From a virus (Duplodnaviria; Heunggongvirae; Uroviricota; Caudoviricetes): 31,308 nucleotides of DNA. A program made the translations under genes and the position numbers. The stretch is taken from the IMG/VR virus record IMGVR_UViG_2690316224_000023; one strand, given 5' to 3'. Below, piece after piece: positions 1 through 31,308 of this stretch (positions within the stretch are counted from its first letter, which is position 1; every line of letters starts with the position of its first letter). Below the pieces are notes generated by a model. That model had not been told where the DNA came from, ran no database searches, and saw only the letters and a program-made list of their open reading frames with translations.

Positions 1-1011
1 TTATAACGTCACTCCGCCTTTTAGTGGATTCAGAGCGACGGCATTTTGCAGATAGTCAGGCGCAAGGTGCGCATAGGCCATCGTCTGCTGAATGCTCGCA
101 TGTCCCAGAATCTGTTGCAGTGCGATTATATTGCCCCCATTCATCATGAAATGGCTTGCGAATGTATGCCGCAGGATGTGGGTTGCCTGATTGGGTGGTA
201 TATCAGGTTTCACTCTGCGTAAAATCCCGCAAAATTTCTCATAATCAACTTTGAATAATTTGGCGCTGGCCTCCTCTTTAACTTTTTTCTCCAGTTCCTC
301 AGAAATCGGCACGGTTCGCTTTTTACCGTTTTTGGTTTTCAGGAAGGTAACCCTGCAATTTGTAATCTGTGCTGGTTTTAGCGTGGCAACTTCCGTCCAT
401 CTTCCTCCAGTGCTCAGACATAAAAGCGCGACAAGTAAGTCATCACCAGCCAAAACATTTAACAGTTTTTCGATTTCTGCTTTTTCCAGGAACGTCATTT
501 CAGGGTTGGCCTCCGCCAGTGGCGGCAGTCCGTGAATTGGGTGTTGCCCGGAAAATTCATCCAATTGAATTAATTTTGTGAACATGCCGGATAATCGGTA
601 CATGTCACGGTTTATCGTTGCGGCACTGATACCATCACGTAGTCGCATGGAACGATAATCCATCAAAGCCCTTTTGCTCATCCTGCTCACTGGTATATCA
701 CCTATGCCGCTGATGGTTTTGAGTAGATGATTAAACTCTTTAGTTCCATGCTCGTGGTTTTGCCCGTGATATTTCCACCAGATGTCCAGCAACTCACTCA
801 AAGTCCGGCGGTCTGCTCGCTGGCCTCCCCATTCTTTCTGACTGGCATTGGCGATTGTGTATCGCTCAAATGCTAGTGCTTCAGCTTTTCTTTCGAATTT
901 CCTGCGGATGCGTTTTCCGTCGCGACCGCGAGGTCTAATGTCCACTTCATAGCGACCATCATCGAGCTTCTTAATTGCCATAAGAAAGCCCTCCGGCGCT
1001 GTATTCACCAT
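1..1011 (-). CDS. int: Tyrosine integrase, P2 Int-like; complete, with stop codon at window positions 1-3
   Basis: 336-aa ORF; C-terminal tyrosine-recombinase box (HILRHTFASH ... GHASIQQTMAYAHL with the catalytic Tyr); sits at the prophage end co-transcribed downstream of the repressor, as in P2 (Int remembered as 337 aa). Confidence 0.9.
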   Translation of the reverse strand: MVNTAPEGFLMAIKKLDDGRYEVDIRPRGRDGKRIRRKFERKAEALAFERYTIANASQKEWGGQRADRRTLSELLDIWWKYHGQNHEHGTKEFNHLLKTISGIGDIPVSRMSKRALMDYRSMRLRDGISAATINRDMYRLSGMFTKLIQLDEFSGQHPIHGLPPLAEANPEMTFLEKAEIEKLLNVLAGDDLLVALLCLSTGGRWTEVATLKPAQITNCRVTFLKTKNGKKRTVPISEELEKKVKEEASAKLFKVDYEKFCGILRRVKPDIPPNQATHILRHTFASHFMMNGGNIIALQQILGHASIQQTMAYAHLAPDYLQNAVALNPLKGGVTL

Positions 1012-6017: not shown

Positions 6018-8225
6018 CTAAGCGGTAGTGTCTTCTATATTCTTTTTCTCTTCATACATTTTATTAAAATGTGAAATATCTCCCATAAGTCTAAATATCT
6101 CTTTAAATTGTGTGATGTATATGTCGGGTGTTATTTCACCCATATCTGTTATGTTTATCGAATCTGAGTGTGAACCTCTATTTATATATCTATAGAAAGC
6201 CTTGAAATTACTATTGCTTTCATTTTGTGCAAGCCTGTTCAATTCATCTTGTAACTCGTTAGTTTTATGAACAAATGCAAAGTAATATTCTAAGATGTTT
6301 CTCATTGTATTAGGGATAACTACATTGTGAACTTTTCCATCTCTGGCATCCTTGAGTATTTGCCATAAAGATTGATATTCATTTTGCAAACTATCTCTGC
6401 TGATGTTAGAAAAAGAACTATGTAGGTTTTTTGTTATTCTAAAAAGCTGATAGGTGCTATTGAATTTCCTTTCTGAAATTGGAGCTAACTTTATTAGCTC
6501 ATGAAAAAAATATAGATTATGAGTGAGGATTATCACTTTATTAGCAGAAGTGAAAATGTCATAGTGAATCATCGATGCTATATCATAGATATAGTTCTGA
6601 GAGAGACTTGAAATAGGATCGTCAATGACGATTAAACTGTCTCGGTTGTCGAATTCATCTGTGTTTGTTTGTCCCTTACAATATTCAATAAAATAGAGAA
6701 ATGTAATGAGAGTTTTTTCACCTTCGCTAAGAGATCTATATACATTTTTACTTGGTGTATTATCTGAGCGAACTATAACGAAACTATTTTTTATGGTTGG
6801 ATGTTTATCAATGTAGAAACAGGTAATGCCAAGGTTTTTTAATTTTGAGTTTATCGAGGAGATTGTTGTGTCGATATCGGATGTTTTATTTCTTAATTCC
6901 TTTATTTCATCATCAGTGTGTTTGATTTCTTTGTTAATAGAATCAATGCTTTCTTCGAGACTCTTGATAATGATGTCGTTTTCGGCTTGAATTTTCTCTA
7001 AAACCTCAAAGTCTGTATTGCGGTAGTTTCTCAATGCTCCCCAAAACTGATTTTTTATTTTATCTTGAGTAAGGTTAAATTGTTTTACCTTTTCATTAAG
7101 GTCATTAATTCTAGAGTTATATTGTTTTATGTCTTTTAGAAGAGATTCCTCAATATCTTTATCTTTATCAAGAGTTACGCTGAGTGACGGGTTTTGTATC
7201 TTGTTATTAATTAACTCAATGTTACTTTTTAGCATTTTCTCAAGGGAAGAAATGTGAGCAAGACTAGTTTTTCTTTCTTCAATTGAGATTGCTGTACAGT
7301 CATTTAACTGTGTTTTTAGTAATTGAAGTTGTTCTTGAGTAGTTAATTCATAAATATATTTTAATTTTTCAATTGATGTTATTTTCTGAGCGTAGCTCTC
7401 ATCAAAAATTTGCTCGAGCGCCTCTGTGAATTTATCATCAATGGTTTCTTTTTGACAAAAAGGGCAAATGTCGCCAACTAAATAATTTTCTTTACCTTTT
7501 TTAACCCAATCGAGATTCTGAAGCTTTTTGATTGTTTCTGATAGATAGCTATTGCTAGAATCAATGACAGGAGTCTTTAATAAATTTTCATCATCAAAAG
7601 AAATAGGGTAAGGATTATATGGAGATATTGTTTGTATGGTGGTGTTTTTATGATTCAATAACTCTCTGTAGTCAGTTAATAATTGATTTAAATCTATATC
7701 AGGTAATCTAATAGAAGACTTTACCTTTGTGAAAAGGTTTCTTTTATTCTTAAGGTACCCTGCCATTAATGAGTTGACATCAGAGTTTCTTATGTATTCG
7801 GTATTTAACCATATTGATTCAGTACAACTTGTTTCTGCATCATGATTGCGGTCTTTAATTTTTTGATAATTTGTTTTTGTTGCCTCTAGTTTTATTTTTA
7901 ATGTTTTAACTATTTCTCTTTTCTTACTTATCTCTTTTTCGATCTCGGTATTTTCTTTGCTTAATGTAAAAATCCCTTTTTGAACATCTTTATCAAAGAA
8001 GTTGTCTTCAATGAACTTTGTATTATAAACCAATGGACGATAGTTATTAATGTTTGTGCAGCGGCAGTCCCTATAGTCATCGTCTGCTGGATTATAGAAA
8101 AAATTTGATATGGTAGATTTCCCAGCTCCGTTTTGCCCGTAAAGGATATTTATTCTTTTTTCGAGGGATATTTTCGTATATTTATTTTTGTCGTAGCTTG
8201 TTACATTTTTTAGACTAAGTTCCAT
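6018..8225 (-). CDS. Cargo gene: 735-aa ABC/SMC-like ATPase with coiled-coil/CxxC insert and C-terminal putative nuclease domain; candidate anti-phage defence protein (RloC/PrrC-like architecture)
   Basis: Walker A GQNGAGKST (nt 8112-8138), CPFC (7455-7466), ABC signature-like LSEGEK (6714-6731), Walker B LIVIDD (6618-6635), H-loop ILTHN (6516-6530), C-terminal R642-x3-E646 ... H653/H686; strongly AT-rich against GC-rich phage flanks; sits where P2 has old/tin. Confidence 0.8.
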   Translation of the reverse strand: MELSLKNVTSYDKNKYTKISLEKRINILYGQNGAGKSTISNFFYNPADDDYRDCRCTNINNYRPLVYNTKFIEDNFFDKDVQKGIFTLSKENTEIEKEISKKREIVKTLKIKLEATKTNYQKIKDRNHDAETSCTESIWLNTEYIRNSDVNSLMAGYLKNKRNLFTKVKSSIRLPDIDLNQLLTDYRELLNHKNTTIQTISPYNPYPISFDDENLLKTPVIDSSNSYLSETIKKLQNLDWVKKGKENYLVGDICPFCQKETIDDKFTEALEQIFDESYAQKITSIEKLKYIYELTTQEQLQLLKTQLNDCTAISIEERKTSLAHISSLEKMLKSNIELINNKIQNPSLSVTLDKDKDIEESLLKDIKQYNSRINDLNEKVKQFNLTQDKIKNQFWGALRNYRNTDFEVLEKIQAENDIIIKSLEESIDSINKEIKHTDDEIKELRNKTSDIDTTISSINSKLKNLGITCFYIDKHPTIKNSFVIVRSDNTPSKNVYRSLSEGEKTLITFLYFIEYCKGQTNTDEFDNRDSLIVIDDPISSLSQNYIYDIASMIHYDIFTSANKVIILTHNLYFFHELIKLAPISERKFNSTYQLFRITKNLHSSFSNISRDSLQNEYQSLWQILKDARDGKVHNVVIPNTMRNILEYYFAFVHKTNELQDELNRLAQNESNSNFKAFYRYINRGSHSDSINITDMGEITPDIYITQFKEIFRLMGDISHFNKMYEEKKNIEDTTA

Positions 8226-19672: not shown

Positions 19673-20276
19673 TTCGCGCCTGCTGCCGACCGGCTCATCA
19701 CCACTTGAAGTCGCCGCCGCAAAAGCCTGTGCGGAAATTGAAAAAACGCCGGTCAGTATTCGTGAGCTGTGGAACCCGGATACCTGTCCGGCAAATCTGC
19801 TGCCGTGGCTGGCGTGGTCATTTTCTGTTGACCGCTGGGATGATAAGTGGCCGGAAGCGACAAAACGCGCTGTTATCCGCGATGCGTATTTCATTCACTG
19901 CCATAAGGGCACTATAGGCGCAATCCGGCGTGTGGTGGAGCCGCTCGGCTATCTGATTGAGGTGAGGGAGTGGTGGCAACTCAACGAGGAGCCGGGGACG
20001 TTCCGTATCGTTGTTGGTGTGCTTGAGCAGGGTATTACCGAGGAAATGTATCAGGAGCTGGAGCGCCTCGTTGCTGATGCAAAACCGGCAAGCCGCCATC
20101 TGACGGGACTGGCTATCAGTTTAAGTACAACCGGCAACATTTTTGCCGGTGCGGGATGCTATCACGGTGACGCCCTGACGGTTTATCCCTACACCCCGGA
20201 GGCCATTATTGTCGGAGGGGATTATTTCCCGGCCTCGGCCATTCATTTAATTGATAACCTGAGAGTAAACGCATGA
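19665..20276 (+). CDS. I: Baseplate protein, P2 gpI-like
   Basis: 203-aa ORF; start overlaps the J stop and stop overlaps the H start (ATGA); position. Confidence 0.8.
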   Translation: MSDSRLLPTGSSPLEVAAAKACAEIEKTPVSIRELWNPDTCPANLLPWLAWSFSVDRWDDKWPEATKRAVIRDAYFIHCHKGTIGAIRRVVEPLGYLIEVREWWQLNEEPGTFRIVVGVLEQGITEEMYQELERLVADAKPASRHLTGLAISLSTTGNIFAGAGCYHGDALTVYPYTPEAIIVGGDYFPASAIHLIDNLRVNA

Positions 20277-21394
20277 CAGTGAAATACTACGCCATTCTGA
20301 CTAATCAGGGCGCAGCACGGCTGGCTAACGCGACGATGCTCGGCAGTAAGCTGAATCTGACGCAAATGGCCGTTGGTGATGCGAATGGTGTCTTGCCGAC
20401 ACCAGACCCGGCACAGACAAAACTGATTAACCAGAAACGCATTGCACCGCTGAATCTTCTGAGTGTTGACCCGAACAACCAGAGCCAGATTATTGCGGAG
20501 CAAATCATCCCTGAGAACGAGGGCGGATTCTGGATCCGTGAGATTGGGCTTTATGATGATGAAGGCGTACTCATTGCGGTGGCGAACTGCCCGGAAACGT
20601 ACAAACCGCAGTTGCAGGAAGGCAGTGGTCGTACCCAGACTATCCGCATGATTCTGGTTGTCACGAATACCGAAGCTATCACGCTGAAAATCGACCCGTC
20701 GGTGGTACTGGCGACCCGTAAATACGTGGATGATGAAGTCCTGGAATTAAGGCTGTATGTGGATGACCAGATGAGAAACCACATTGCCGCACAGGATCCT
20801 CATACCCAGTATGCGCAGAAACATAATCCGACATTTACCGGAGAACCAAAAGCGCCGACGCCTGCCGCAGGAAATAACACCACGCGGATTGCGACCACTG
20901 AGTTTGTTCAGGCCGCTATTACCGCTCTGATTAACGGTGCGCCTGACACGCTGGACACACTGAAAGAAATTGCCGCAGCCATTAACAATGACCCGAAATT
21001 CAGCACCACCATTAACAATGCGCTGTCAGGTAAGCAGCCACTGGATGAGACGCTGACTCATTTGAGTGGAAAGGATGTTGCCGGTCTTCTCGCATACCTT
21101 GGTTTTGGAGAAGGTGCTAACTGGGTTATGTTACCTGGAGGAATGATAATTCAGCGTGTTTATCTTGGATTTCCTGTTGGCACCAATGTAAGACACATAA
21201 CTTTCCCCCGGTCGTTTACAACAACGAACTATTCCATCTCAATTAACTGGAATGATATCGGTACTGTAACAACTGAAACACAATCACCAGCAAATGTGGC
21301 GGTTGTTCATCAAACAAAATCATTAACAGGGGCCAGCATCTGGCAGGCAGGTCCCGGGGGATTTAATGTGGACATTATAGCGGTGGGGTATTGA
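20273..21394 (+). CDS. H: Tail fibre protein H in its current orientation (373 aa): constant N-terminal part plus a switchable C-terminal part beginning inside the invertible segment
   Basis: N-terminal phage tail-fibre domain; the left recombination site falls at codons about 276-282 (GFGEG); the 3' part shares that junction motif with the inverted cassette. Confidence 0.85.
   Translation: MTVKYYAILTNQGAARLANATMLGSKLNLTQMAVGDANGVLPTPDPAQTKLINQKRIAPLNLLSVDPNNQSQIIAEQIIPENEGGFWIREIGLYDDEGVLIAVANCPETYKPQLQEGSGRTQTIRMILVVTNTEAITLKIDPSVVLATRKYVDDEVLELRLYVDDQMRNHIAAQDPHTQYAQKHNPTFTGEPKAPTPAAGNNTTRIATTEFVQAAITALINGAPDTLDTLKEIAAAINNDPKFSTTINNALSGKQPLDETLTHLSGKDVAGLLAYLGFGEGANWVMLPGGMIIQRVYLGFPVGTNVRHITFPRSFTTTNYSISINWNDIGTVTTETQSPANVAVVHQTKSLTGASIWQAGPGGFNVDIIAVGY
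21099..21117. repeat. Left inverted repeat / recombination site of the invertible tail-fibre segment (gix/hix-like)
   Basis: TTGGTTTTGGAGAAGGTGC matches the reverse complement of 22828-22846 at 18 of 19 positions; resembles the right half of the Gin/Hin site consensus (CCGAGGTTTTGGATAA). Confidence 0.6.
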
Positions 21395-21395
21395 T

Positions 21396-21824
21396 ATGTA
21401 CGTATGGAGCGCTAAAGCAAATGGCTTTTTCCCCATATCGGAGAAAGAAAAATTTGAGGCATCAGGCCTGTGGCCTGATGATGGTGTAATAGTCAGTGAG
21501 GAAGAACATAAAAAGTTATTTATGGATATTCCACCAGGAAAACAGATTGGAACACTGAATGGAAAACCAGCACTGATAGATATTCCTCAGCCGACCAAAA
21601 AGGAATTAATAGCTATTGCTGAAGTTAAAAAATCCCAATTACGGGAAAAAGCTGACAGTGAAATATCCTGGCGTCAGGATGCTGTTGATGCTGATATCGC
21701 AACTGATGAAGAAGCTACAACTCTCACCCAATGGAAGAAATACCGTGTGCTGCTGATGCGTGTTGATACGTCAACAGCACCCGATATTGAATGGCCTACG
21801 CCTCCGGCAGTTCAGGCCAGATGA
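21396..21824 (+). CDS. G: Tail fibre assembly protein (P2 gpG / Mu U-like), active orientation
   Basis: 142 aa; conserved Tfa C-terminal motif (TAPDIEWPTPP); convergent with and overlapping the alternative tfa'. Confidence 0.8.
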   Translation: MYVWSAKANGFFPISEKEKFEASGLWPDDGVIVSEEEHKKLFMDIPPGKQIGTLNGKPALIDIPQPTKKELIAIAEVKKSQLREKADSEISWRQDAVDADIATDEEATTLTQWKKYRVLLMRVDTSTAPDIEWPTPPAVQAR

Positions 21825-22389
21825 CATCCGGCGCGGTGCTGGTATCTGTTGCCGTCACCGCGTCAATGTAATCCAGCACGGCGTTAAGTCGGGTTGTTTC
21901 TGCCTGAGTCAGTTTCCGTCCGGCCTGTAATTTCAGCTGAATCAGACTGATGGAAGCCATTGCAGCATCAATCAGTGACTGGCGCTGTGCTTCTGCCGCT
22001 TCTACTGCGGCACCGTGTTGTGCCTCAGTATCTGTCACCCATTTCTCACCATCCCATTTATCATATGGCGTTAACGGTGAAAGCGTGACATAACCGTTTT
22101 TGATGGCACCGATATAATCCACTGTAACAGCAGCACCATTTTCGATTGAGTAAACAGTCTCATTGCGATGATCTTCTTCATGGCTCCATCCCTTACCTGT
22201 AAATACTGCCACTCTTCCCAGAATGTTTTCGCCAGGGTCAATTCCAGTGGAACAGGCGGGCATACTTACGCCAGTATTAATATATTCATCAGACCAGCCC
22301 GTATACTCAGATGTTTCAGCATCATAATAAAAACAACGCATATCGCCCGGCACTGTAGCCAGCCCATTTTTATCAAAAACAGGTTTCAT
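21796..22389 (-). CDS. Alternative tail fibre assembly protein (tfa', Mu U'-like), currently in the inverted orientation
   Basis: 197 aa; same C-terminal Tfa motif (TAPDVIWPELPEA); 3' end overlaps the 3' end of G. Confidence 0.75.
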   Translation of the reverse strand: MKPVFDKNGLATVPGDMRCFYYDAETSEYTGWSDEYINTGVSMPACSTGIDPGENILGRVAVFTGKGWSHEEDHRNETVYSIENGAAVTVDYIGAIKNGYVTLSPLTPYDKWDGEKWVTDTEAQHGAAVEAAEAQRQSLIDAAMASISLIQLKLQAGRKLTQAETTRLNAVLDYIDAVTATDTSTAPDVIWPELPEA

Positions 22390-22846
22390 TATTTAGCCCT
22401 CACCAGAAAGTTAAATGCAATATTTCGCGGTCTGACAGCAACAAAATTCACACCATCACCCGCAGAGTTACTGGTGAAATTAAATCGTGAAAATCCTGGC
22501 TGATTTCCGGTGATGCCATCATGAAAGTTAATTGCGTGTCCCGCACCTCCGCCTATATTCCCGGCAAACTGAGAAAAGTTTGTAGCTTCCTGCCAGCTTA
22601 ATAATTCGCGACCACCATCTGCACCTCGCCCGTCATCCCAGATACGAATGAAATCACCGCGGGCTTCAGGTAATACCAGCGAAGGAAACACTTTCGCCAG
22701 CACAGGGTAATCAGAGGCAGAAAATTTCGCCCCGTTGAACTTCAAAAACACCATACCGGACCAGCTGTCGATTACAGTATTTGGCATTGCCGCGGAGGGC
22801 CAGAAGAACGGAACGCCAATAGCTGGGGCACCTTCTCCCAAACCAA
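22389..22846 (-). CDS. Alternative tail-fibre C-terminal cassette (H-variable'), promoterless; would fuse to H codons 1 to about 281 after inversion
   Basis: Minus-strand ORF 22389..22886; the GLGEGAP junction at codons 15-21 is encoded by the right inverted repeat; Gly-rich fibre-tip-like sequence. Confidence 0.65.
22828..22846. repeat. Right inverted repeat / recombination site of the invertible segment
   Basis: GCACCTTCTCCCAAACCAA is the reverse complement of 21099-21117 with one mismatch. Confidence 0.6.
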
Positions 22847-22913
22847 CGTTTAAGAAAATGCAGAGATAGCGGCTAACTGGCATCATCTCCGGTTTTTATT
22901 CAGGGGATCCGTC

Positions 22914-23507
22914 ATGCTTATTGGCTATGTCCGCGTATCAACAAATGACCAGAACACGGAATTGCAGCGTAACGCACTGGAGTGTGCAGGATGTGAGCTG
23001 ATTTTTGAGGACAAAATCAGCGGCACGAAGTCCGACAGACCGGGGCTGAAAAAACTGCTCAGAACATTATCGGAAGGTGACACTCTGGTTGTCTGGAAGC
23101 TGGACAGGCTGGGGCGTAGTATGCGGCATCTGGTCATTCTGGTTGAGGAACTGCGCGAACGCGGCGTTAATTTTCGCAGCCTGACGGATGCTATTGATAC
23201 CAGCACGCCGATGGGGCGTTTTTTCTTTCATGTGATGGGTGCTCTGGCTGAAATGGAGCGAGAACTCATTGTCGAGCGGACACGCGCCGGACTGGAAGCG
23301 GCCAGAGCCAAAGGTCGTATTGGTGGCAGACGACCGAAACTCACCACGAGTGAGTGGGAGCAGGCCGGACGGTTGCTGGCTGCAGGGGAGTCACGTCAAC
23401 GCGTGGCACTGATTTTTGATATTGGTCTGTCCACGCTCTATAAAAAATTTCCCTCATCAGCGACAAAGAATAAATTGTGTCATCCCTTAGCCAACCGGGA
23501 CAAATAG
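22914..23507 (+). CDS. Serine site-specific DNA invertase (Hin/Gin/Pin/Cin family)
   Basis: 197 aa; N-terminal resolvase catalytic domain with the active-site serine (MLIGYVRVSTNDQN), conserved DRLGRS region, C-terminal HTH; lies directly next to the invertible segment. Confidence 0.9.
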   Translation: MLIGYVRVSTNDQNTELQRNALECAGCELIFEDKISGTKSDRPGLKKLLRTLSEGDTLVVWKLDRLGRSMRHLVILVEELRERGVNFRSLTDAIDTSTPMGRFFFHVMGALAEMERELIVERTRAGLEAARAKGRIGGRRPKLTTSEWEQAGRLLAAGESRQRVALIFDIGLSTLYKKFPSSATKNKLCHPLANRDK

Positions 23508-28706: not shown

Positions 28707-29869
28707 TGCTGGATGCGCTGACATTTGATGCAGGCAGTACGCTGACGCCGGATTACATGCTGATGCTCGACAGCAGGGATATTACCGGCAATATCAGCGA
28801 CCGTCTGATGAGCATGACCCTGACGGATAACCGGGGCTTTGAGGCTGACCAGCTTGATATTGAACTGAACGATGCCGACGGGCAGGTCGGGCTGCCGGTT
28901 CGTGGCGCTGTCCTGACGGTGTATATCGGCTGGAAAGGTTTTGCCCTGGTATGCAAAGGGAAATTTACCGTTGATGAGGTTGAACACCGGGGCGCGCCGG
29001 ATGTGGTCACCATCCGCGCCCGGAGTGCAGATTTTCGCGGGACGCTCAATTCCCGCCGTGAAGGCTCATGGCATGACATTACGCTCGGTGCGATTGTTGA
29101 GGCGATAGCCTCCCGTAACAGGCTGGAAGCCAGTGTCGCTCCGTCACTGGCCGGAATAAAAATTCCACACATCGACCAGTCGCAGGAGTCTGATGCGAAA
29201 TTCCTGACCCGTCTTGCAGAACGCAACGGCGGTGAGGTGTCGGTAAAAATGGGAAAACTGTTGTTTCTCAAAGCGGGGCAGGGGGTGACGGCCAGCGGTA
29301 AAAAAATCCCGCAGGTCACCATCACCCGCAGCGACGGCGACCGCCATCATTTTGCGATTGCTGACCGTGGAGCCTATACCGGCGTAACGGCAAAGTGGTT
29401 ACACACCAAAGACCCGAAACCACAAAAGCAGAAGGTAAAACTGAAACGCAAAAAGAAAGAAAAACACCTGCGCGCACTGGAGCACCCGAAAGCGAAACCG
29501 GTCACGCAGAAGAAAGCGCCAAAAGTACCGGAAGCGCGCGAAGGTGAATACATGGCCGGTGAGGCTGACAACGTTTTTGCCCTGACTACGGTATATGCCA
29601 CGAAAGCGCAGGCCATGCGCGCCGCTCAGGCGAAGTGGGATAAACTGCAACGGGGTGTGGCGGAGTTCTCCATCAGCCTGGCTACCGGTCGGGCAGATAT
29701 TTACACGGAAACACCGGTTAAAGTGTCAGGCTTTAAGCGCGTCATAGACGAGCAGGACTGGACAATCACTAAGGTGACACATTTTCTGAATAATAGCGGC
29801 TTCACGACGTCCTTGGAACTTGAGGTCAGGCTTTCTGATGTGGAGTACGAAACAGAAGATGATGAGTGA
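28706..29869 (+). CDS. D: Tail/late protein, P2 gpD-like
   Basis: 387 aa as P2 gpD; start overlaps the U stop; Lys-rich low-complexity linker (KPQKQKVKLKRKKKEKH). Confidence 0.85.
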   Translation: MLDALTFDAGSTLTPDYMLMLDSRDITGNISDRLMSMTLTDNRGFEADQLDIELNDADGQVGLPVRGAVLTVYIGWKGFALVCKGKFTVDEVEHRGAPDVVTIRARSADFRGTLNSRREGSWHDITLGAIVEAIASRNRLEASVAPSLAGIKIPHIDQSQESDAKFLTRLAERNGGEVSVKMGKLLFLKAGQGVTASGKKIPQVTITRSDGDRHHFAIADRGAYTGVTAKWLHTKDPKPQKQKVKLKRKKKEKHLRALEHPKAKPVTQKKAPKVPEAREGEYMAGEADNVFALTTVYATKAQAMRAAQAKWDKLQRGVAEFSISLATGRADIYTETPVKVSGFKRVIDEQDWTITKVTHFLNNSGFTTSLELEVRLSDVEYETEDDE

Positions 29870-29950
29870 TGTTTTTGTTTTATCTGTTTGTTTTATAAGG
29901 ATAAATTAACTAAAATGGCACCATCAACAAAACCGGAAGAGGTGCTCGCG

Positions 29951-30169
29951 ATGTTTCATTGTCCTTTATGCCAGCATGCCGCACATGCGCGTACAAGCCG
30001 CTATATCACTGACACGACAAAAGAGCGTTATCACCAGTGTCAGAACGTGAATTGCAGCGCCACGTTCATCACTTATGAGTCGGTACAGCGATACATCGTA
30101 AAGCCGGGAGAAGTCCACGCCGTAAGGCCGCACCCGTTACCGTCAGGGCAGCAAATTATGTGGATGTGA
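29951..30169 (+). CDS. ogr: Late-gene transcription activator Ogr (zinc-finger), from the internal ATG of ORF 29888..30169
   Basis: 72 aa; zinc-binding CPLC ... CQNVNC arrangement; last phage gene before the host junction, as in P2. Confidence 0.85.
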   Translation: MFHCPLCQHAAHARTSRYITDTTKERYHQCQNVNCSATFITYESVQRYIVKPGEVHAVRPHPLPSGQQIMWM

Positions 30170-30179
30170 TCACAAAAAT

Positions 30180-30205
30180 AGCCCCTCAGTTGAGGGGCTT
30201 TATTT
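30180..30205 (+). terminator. Intrinsic terminator after ogr; probably overlaps the attR core region
   Basis: Hairpin GCCCCTC-AGTT-GAGGGGC (30181-30198) followed by TTTATTT; preceded by an A-rich run so it could act in both directions. Confidence 0.6.
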
Positions 30206-30297
30206 ATGGTCGATGTGGACGCTATGTGGACAGTGTTTGATATAAATCCATTTATATCATCAGGTTAGGTGCTTTTTTGTGACACCATCCCTGTCTT

Positions 30298-30324
30298 CCC
30301 CCACATGATGTGGGGTTTTTTTTT
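30298..30324 (+). terminator. Strong intrinsic terminator in the host flank upstream of fieF; possibly the 3' end of an upstream host transcript or a 3'-UTR-derived sRNA
   Basis: Stem CCCCAC / GTGGGG with a 5-nt loop, followed by a 9-nt T run (30316-30324). Confidence 0.65.
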
Positions 30325-30405
30325 ATCCTCAATTTGCCTGCTGCTTAATGCATTGCAGATGATTTGCTTCCGTTATACTAGCGTCAGTTGATAGCGGGAG
30401 TATTT

Positions 30406-31308
30406 ATGAATCAATCTTATGGACGGCTGGTCAGTCGGGCGGCGATTGCTGCGACGGCGATGGCTTCGTTGCTATTGCTGATTAAAATTTTTGCATGGTG
30501 GTATACCGGGTCGGTGAGTATTCTCGCCGCGCTGGTGGATTCGCTGGTGGATATCGGCGCGTCGTTGACGAATTTATTGGTGGTGCGATATTCCCTGCAA
30601 CCTGCCGACGATAATCACTCGTTTGGTCACGGTAAAGCTGAGTCCCTCGCGGCGCTGGCGCAAAGTATGTTTATCTCCGGTTCGGCACTATTCCTGTTTT
30701 TGACGGGTATTCAACATCTGATATCTCCAACACCGATGACAGATCCAGGCGTCGGGGTTATCGTGACAATTGTGGCGCTAATTTGTACGATTATCCTTGT
30801 CTCGTTTCAGCGTTGGGTGGTGCGGCGGACGCAAAGCCAGGCGGTGCGGGCTGATATGCTACATTACCAGTCTGATGTTATGATGAACGGCGCAATTCTG
30901 CTGGCGCTGGGGTTGTCCTGGTACGGCTGGCATCGCGCCGATGCTCTGTTTGCATTGGGAATCGGCATCTATATTTTATATAGCGCGTTACGCATGGGAT
31001 ATGAGGCGGTACAGTCATTACTGGATCGCGCATTGCCTGATGAGGAACGGCAAGAAATTATTGATATCGTGACTTCCTGGCCGGGTGTTAGCGGCGCTCA
31101 CGATCTTCGCACGCGGCAGTCAGGGCCGACCCGCTTTATTCAGATTCATTTGGAAATGGAAGACTCTCTGCCTTTGGTTCAGGCACATATGGTGGCGGAT
31201 CAGGTAGAGCAGGCTATTTTACGGCGTTTTCCGGGATCGGATGTAATTATCCATCAGGACCCCTGTTCCGTCGTACCCAGGGAGGGTAAACGGTCTATGC
31301 TTTCATAA
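30406..31308 (+). CDS. fieF: Host cation-diffusion-facilitator ferrous-iron/zinc efflux transporter FieF (YiiP); 300 aa from ATG 30406 (ORF track begins at 30388)
   Basis: Sequence matches E. coli FieF/YiiP as I remember it, including metal-site residues at D45/D49 (LVDSLVD) and H153/D157 (LHYQSD); GC content and codon style differ from the adjacent prophage. Confidence 0.9.

Follow-up and report, generated by a model that had tools for sequence, protein, structure and literature searches.

Recombination in the P2 family uses Int, which binds to both arm sites and core sites, IHF, which bends the P arm, and Cox, which directs attL and attR to recombine in excision. [quoted passage not shown] In the annotation of the P2 reference genome (NC_001895) the order is ogr, rho-independent terminator, Int P arm, IHF, attP core, Cox, P' arm and int, with the core about 70 bp beyond the terminator and past the Int P-arm and IHF sites. 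Known integrators into RNA-gene 3' ends are 186 in tRNA-Ile and Fels-2/SopEPhi in ssrA (PMC3448106), and P2-type elements have also been listed at the cyaR and rybB loci (PMC3032704). The phage WPhi (Peduovirus Wphi) integrates at MG1655 coordinate 4104392 (PMC3448106, Table 1), and 'Wphi1 (P2)' has been described at cpxP-fieF in E. coli W (PMC3032704). CpxQ itself is 58 nt long, with the seed for nhaB and cfa at its 5' end (PMC6755755), and it begins with U and carries another U at position 7 (PMC10250213). Our literature search also showed that prophages or insertions of P2 size had already been reported from the cpxP-fieF interval of O157 and Salmonella Infantis.

Here we analyzed a stretch of DNA of 31,308 nt (in the following the window), whose left edge is exactly the stop codon of int and whose right edge is the stop codon of fieF. 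We are highly confident that positions 30170-30405 are the attR of a WPhi-type P2-like (Peduovirus) prophage, which was integrated by its Int into the 3' part of cpxQ with CpxQ being rebuilt at attL. The closest described system is indeed WPhi, which occupies the same chromosomal position, has a 99% identical Int and shares the ogr-side arm and the core except for one base, a host-lineage G-to-T difference at 30316 in the window, whereas the remainder of this prophage is a mosaic identical to neither WPhi nor any complete E. coli genome, the best of which reaches 93% coverage and 98.5% identity. The modular order is the same as in P2 attP, including Cox sites and P' arm, and the terminator and P arm can be aligned; in contrast, the P2 core is another sequence of 27 bp with other host sites, and the WPhi-type core has 47 bp and corresponds to CpxQ. 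The features of the junction, together with both terminal genes, are as follows.

1-981, minus strand: int, WPhi-type tyrosine integrase (322 of 326 amino acids identical to WPhi Int)

29951-30169, plus strand: ogr (annotated ogrK), late-gene activator and last phage gene (annotation in homologous E. coli prophages and WPhi; ORF list)

30178-30205, plus strand: predicted intrinsic terminator of ogr and the late F operon, stem 30180-30199 with T-rich tail (scan, fold, P2 alignment)

30210-30237, no strand: P-arm region with arm-type binding sites for Int (repeats, P2 alignment)

30238-30280, no strand: A/T-rich P-arm spacer with putative IHF-binding region (aligned with the 'IHF' protein_bind feature of P2)

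30281-30327, no strand: attR common core, 47 bp (overlap of phage homology and host homology)

30281-30324, plus strand: orphan cpxQ 3' fragment corresponding to CpxQ nt 15-58 (43 of 44 positions identical to the CpxQ of empty-site locus L001, 1501-1544)

30316, plus strand: T instead of G, host-lineage allele at the boundary of stem and U-tract (core comparison)

30328-30405, plus strand: unaltered host spacer upstream of fieF, presumed fieF promoter/leader (identical to empty-site genomes)

30406-31308, plus strand: fieF (yiiP), host CDF metal-efflux transporter (annotation of homologous records)

A 40-aa open reading frame at 30269-30391, which spans core, terminator and host spacer, was rejected as spurious.

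The limits of the phage DNA were determined by alignment of free phages and empty sites. A 271-bp query over the junction gave matches in all 5426 complete E. coli genomes, end to end in only 599 of them, and in the remaining genomes the alignment begins at query base 132, which is window position 30281, and continues rightwards. The empty site of strain 14EC033 has cpxP and fieF as direct neighbours, in this order, and aligns with the window from GACACC at 30281; such empty-site genomes also bear out the statement in the first-pass annotation that cpxP is the normal upstream neighbour of fieF. In free phages (WPhi, fiAA91-ss, L-413C relatives and others) the match to the window runs from inside ogr to 30327, past which they diverge towards their own int. 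Phage-only DNA reaches 30280 and DNA common to phage and host reaches 30327, and as phage homology extends to 30327 and host homology starts at 30281, the overlap 30281-30327 is the att core. It reads GACACCATCCCTGTCTTCCCCCACATGATGTGGGGGTTTTTTTTATC, or written around the variable base 30316, GACACCATCCCTGTCTTCCCCCACATGATGTGGGG(T)TTTTTTTTATC. The identical 47 bp are present in attB of the empty site, in attP of WPhi and in both attL and attR of the lysogen RM8385, the empty sites agree exactly with an attL query through the final core base, and the window core matches the WPhi attP core in 46 of 47 bases with 30316 as sole mismatch. Strand exchange takes place somewhere within these 47 bp. Besides the WPhi-type Int, the common core flanked by phage and host DNA and the arm repeats, the location between cpxP and fieF also identifies the junction as attR, as fieF starts at 30406 and cpxP adjoins int in all related lysogens as well as in all eight assemblies with an identical Int.

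The ogr stop codon (30167-30169), the fieF start codon and both hairpins between them are present as first annotated. The first hairpin, AGCCCCTC-AGTT-GAGGGGCT at 30180-30199, has a GC-rich stem of eight pairs, is terminator-like on both strands and folds with an MFE of -16.7 kcal/mol (z -3.6). The second, CCCCACAT-G-ATGTGGGG at 30299-30315, has a GC-rich stem of 7 bp, with nine T behind it at 30316-30324. A terminator scan of 29800-30500 found three terminator-like sites compared to 0.7 expected from shuffles, and a simple consensus scan of the same region, the spacer upstream of fieF included, found no sigma-70-like promoter. In order to carry the P2 features over to the window we aligned P2, the WPhi attP, the window and one attL, which places the terminator at 30178-30201, the P arm at 30210-30237 and the IHF-type spacer at about 30241-30280. 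The first hairpin aligns with the P2 feature annotated as 'rho-independent terminator for ogr transcript and F operon', and because of this homology we assign it as the predicted terminator of ogr and the late F operon and not as att core. Behind it the direct repeat ATGTGGAC is found twice (30213-30220 and 30224-30231, repeat family D4), aligned with the P2 protein_bind feature 'Int, P arm' and fitting the published P2-type arm consensus tgTGGaCa (PMC3448106). A perfect 10-bp palindrome TGATATAAAT/ATTTATATCA at 30238-30259 lies inside the stretch aligned with the P2 IHF site, and an IHF-consensus-like TATCATCAGGTTA is located at 30255-30267; IHF would thus be expected to bind in the P-arm spacer 30238-30280.

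To the right of the arm, the core itself belongs to an sRNA. In the empty site, 9 nt after the cpxP stop codon, a 58-nt stretch TTTTCCTTGCCATAGACACC...GTGGGGGTTTTTTTT ends in the hairpin and U8. As this stretch fits CpxQ in its published length, 5' U and U7, the core 30281-30327 can be assigned to CpxQ nt 15-58 plus ATC, with the CpxQ terminator included. The earlier suggestion of a CpxQ-type terminator at 30298-30324 was therefore correct, since the 58-nt CpxQ of the empty site ends in that very hairpin and U-tract, and so was the proposed insertion into an envelope-stress locus, as the core lies within cpxQ. The window copy at 30281-30324 keeps the conserved nt 15-30, the terminator stem 30299-30315 and the U-tract 30316-30324, that is the complete hairpin followed by nine U, and is preceded by phage DNA: the seed nt 1-14 (UUUUCCUUGCCAUA) are absent and the 14 nt preceding the core are the phage sequence AGGTGCTTTTTTGT. 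Upstream of it are ogr, the ogr terminator and the phage arm instead of a cpxP 3' UTR, and the copy has neither the RNase E processing context nor the CpxR-dependent cpxP promoter; in related lysogens cpxP is found at attL, at a distance of about 31 kb. The fragment beside fieF is an orphan 3' fragment, a displaced piece of cpxQ and not a copy of the gene, and the functional copy is expected at attL.

An Rfam search of the window copy and of full-length E. coli CpxQ gave no match named CpxQ. The family RF02628 'Hrs1' matched on the minus strand with 28.8 bits at window 30258-30323 and with 44.5 bits on the full-length E. coli CpxQ (L001 1472-1544), both below the gathering score of 56.4. As the consensus of this model opens with A7, Hrs1 gives the impression of a homologue of CpxQ whose model was built on the wrong strand. 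Other Rfam matches were discarded as terminator-driven noise.

Because the window starts at the int stop codon, attL lies just left of it. In RM8385 the core ends 116 bp past the int stop, and in RM8385, 504237 and 0-4 attL consists of the cpxP stop, the full 58-nt CpxQ, ATC, the phage P' arm with two GTGTGGACA-type repeats, and int. A look-up of the exact Int protein gave eight assemblies, in all of which int is followed by the complete CpxQ and cpxP-cpxR-cpxA; three of the eight have a Salmonella-type cpxP end. The WPhi attP holds CpxQ nt 15-58, and the core is found in at least 40 phage records. Thus, as in other RNA-gene 3'-end integrators, attP carries a copy of the 3' part, here with a dyad-symmetric hairpin, the gene is rebuilt at the int-proximal junction, where it is intact in the relatives, and a partial copy is left at the other junction. 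Unlike the listed examples the target is a 3'-UTR-derived sRNA without its own promoter, so reconstitution must preserve both the mRNA terminator and the sRNA body.

From these data we propose that a WPhi-type phage would integrate by Int-mediated site-specific recombination inside the 3' part of cpxQ. As attP carries the last 44 nt of CpxQ, integration would restore the full CpxQ and with it the cpxP-CpxQ unit at attL beside int, in the expected order cpxP stop, 9 nt, TTTTCCTTGCCATA, 47-bp core, about 116 bp and int stop, and would leave attR with a promoter-less and seed-less 3' fragment. The attL of this prophage lies outside of the window and its genome outside of the complete set, and so we infer from the relatives that the full CpxQ has been rebuilt here. 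The 3' part of CpxQ that is expressed in lysogens would then probably be supplied by the phage. For the orphan fragment two roles appear most likely from its position and sequence: it may be one half of the excision substrate for Int, Cox and IHF, and it may act as a second intrinsic terminator which insulates fieF from read-through out of ogr and the late operon. Since no promoter was found and a strong terminator is located upstream, the orphan copy is expected to be silent otherwise. Two genomes, H86 (NZ_AP019189.1) and H87 (NZ_CP133854.1), show a full attL junction with a single detected copy of the core and may be prophage remnants without attR.

Three other explanations for the junction have to be considered. 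The first-pass annotation had proposed that the phage ends after ogr with the att core in the hairpin at 30181-30198, and that host DNA takes up the whole stretch between about 30206 and fieF, as a cpxP/CpxQ 3' region whose upstream part was lost or altered. In favour of this, the hairpin is real, lies directly behind ogr and has the dyad symmetry seen in many core sites. However, the free phages are collinear far beyond it through 30327, the empty sites share nothing with 30170-30280 and align with the window only from 30281, and the homology to the ogr/F-operon terminator of P2, whose core is downstream of P arm and IHF site, accounts for the hairpin, so that we give this explanation practically no credence and place the true attR core at 30281-30327. 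The accompanying observation that no cpxP coding end is visible in 30206-30290 does hold, as this stretch aligns with phage attP and not with the cpxP-fieF spacer. The idea of a CpxQ altered in its 3' end was right in so far as the insertion point is inside cpxQ and failed in so far as all the related lysogens that we examined have the full CpxQ at attL; the changes left to its 3' end are sequence-neutral or concern a single base at the boundary of G-run and T-run. A stronger form of this idea would be that CpxQ is inactivated in this particular genome, with attL not reconstituted or degraded and the fragment on the fieF side as its only remnant. The location of attL beyond the window and the attL of H86 and H87 without a detected second core, which hints at rearranged variants, would allow for it, but all 5426 complete E. 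coli genomes keep the cpxP end and CpxQ to the last core base, the full 58 nt are found at attL in all lysogens inspected and in the eight assemblies with an identical Int, and the window starts at an intact int stop codon as in related lysogens, which makes such a loss very improbable.

It might also be that the CpxQ 3' module in attR and in free attP is transcribed as a chimeric Hfq-binding RNA with a phage 5' end, either by the proposed read-through from ogr and the late operon or from a weak promoter in the arm, and that this RNA mimics, competes with or retargets CpxQ. The module is oriented like ogr, it retains the conserved CpxQ nt 15-30 together with the terminator and U-tract typical of Hfq sRNAs, and the phage sequence 5' of the core, GC followed by UUUUUUGU, resembles the U-rich 5' end of CpxQ. 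In lambda infection the level of CpxQ goes up and chimeras of it with phage RNAs are formed on Hfq (bioRxiv 10.1101/2024.10.31.621285), which also speaks for it. Against it, the strong terminator at 30180-30199 separates ogr from the module, the scan of 29800-30500 gave no sigma-70-like promoter, the 5' seed nt 1-14 for nhaB and cfa is absent, and other Peduoviridae have the core and not the ogr-side arm, so that the 5' part does not show the conservation expected of an RNA. Were it true, a chimeric sRNA made from attR in lysogens or from attP in lytic growth would mean that the locus is more than a landing pad. That such an sRNA titrates Hfq or mimics or retargets CpxQ, that P2-family phages in this way tune the Cpx response and that lysogeny overwrites the host CpxQ terminator allele we consider unlikely, as we do the chimeric RNA itself, and we keep to the attR of a WPhi-type prophage with an orphan CpxQ fragment.

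The single mismatch at 30316 allows a look at the crossover. The window has T (G4T9), and most E. coli as well as all full-length attP copies of free phages have G (G5T8). In the empty-site strains with the nearest fieF flank (L008-L010, with 1 mismatch to the window in 1028 nt) the native CpxQ has T, and an O111:H8 strain has it too. In the lysogen 504237 attL has G and attR has T, which together suggests that the T at 30316 is a host allele, that the 3'-terminal part of the attR core comes from the host and that strand exchange occurred 5' of core position 36. The reverse pattern, T at attL and G at attR, is seen in lysogen 0-4, which with GCEC19 is one of two genomes matching an attL query with T, and the boundary of G-run and T-run in the CpxQ terminator varies among assemblies (G6T7, G5T7, G5T8 and G4T9). 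Because of this hypervariable run and the two genomes with T at attL the mapping of the crossover is suggestive only. If it is true, lysogeny would in T-allele lineages swap the expressed CpxQ terminator for the G5U8 version of the phage.

To get an overview of the distribution of this site we searched for its junctions and for CpxQ in other species. Of the 5426 complete E. coli genomes, 785 have the attR junction and 803 have the attL junction, about 15%. For the species survey, with one genome per species, loci were selected by an exact match to CpxQ nt 1-24, which gave at least 120 loci chosen by this pattern. Among the 120 matches listed, from Escherichia to Xenorhabdus, Morganella and Providencia, CpxQ nt 25-30 are invariant and the terminator stem varies with compensatory changes, and nt 15-58 of E. 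coli CpxQ are found exactly in at least 21 of the species listed. A P2-type integrase or a fragment of one is located within about 200 nt behind CpxQ in 16 of these 120, seven of the 16 being at least 250 aa long with 64-88% identity and most having arm-type repeats. The genera among the listed integrase matches include Salmonella, Kosakonia, Yokenella, Pseudocitrobacter, Rosenbergiella, Serratia, Yersinia (Y. pestis), Morganella and Xenorhabdus, and a weak partial match (40% over 109 aa) was obtained in Photorhabdus. What lies behind CpxQ in the Yersinia pestis genome of the survey (L118) is an int remnant of 99 aa, accompanied by two arm repeats. Several Salmonella and Enterobacter phages (Peduoviridae) have the core in common and not the ogr-side arm. 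The cpxQ site is a hotspot for P2-family integrases across Enterobacterales.

Two further loci inside of the prophage were noted. A 735-aa AAA_13 ATPase is encoded on the minus strand at 6018-8225 (Pfam E = 1.7e-110) between the replication gene and the portal gene, a position that is the accessory slot of P2 and the usual place of defence-type cargo. At 22914-23507 on the plus strand there is a resolvase/HTH_7 DNA-invertase gene, adjoining a gene for tail-fibre assembly (21796-22389) which is encoded on the other strand. Together with the unassigned open reading frame 22389-22886, and with the tail-fibre gene 20273-21394 upstream, the segment 21796-23507 has the look of an invertible host-range segment of the Gin/Cin type, here within a P2-like prophage.

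In summary, the WPhi site and CpxQ were each already known and only their coincidence seems to be unremarked in the literature searched: our search, whose coverage was incomplete, found no paper linking CpxQ to a phage att site. Our addition is a modest one at the level of annotation, namely that the core is CpxQ nt 15-58 and that this site is an Enterobacterales hotspot. It is a further example of a phage attachment site in the 3' end of an RNA gene and does not establish a new principle. For the annotation of this prophage the boundary is now fixed, with phage DNA to 30280 and the core to 30327, and the terminator beside fieF should not be taken as a gene. Moreover, in about one of seven E. 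coli genomes it is probably a phage that has supplied the expressed 3' portion of an envelope-stress sRNA, and the architecture of CpxQ, an invariant stretch plus a hairpin, serves as a landing site for P2-family integrases across Enterobacterales.
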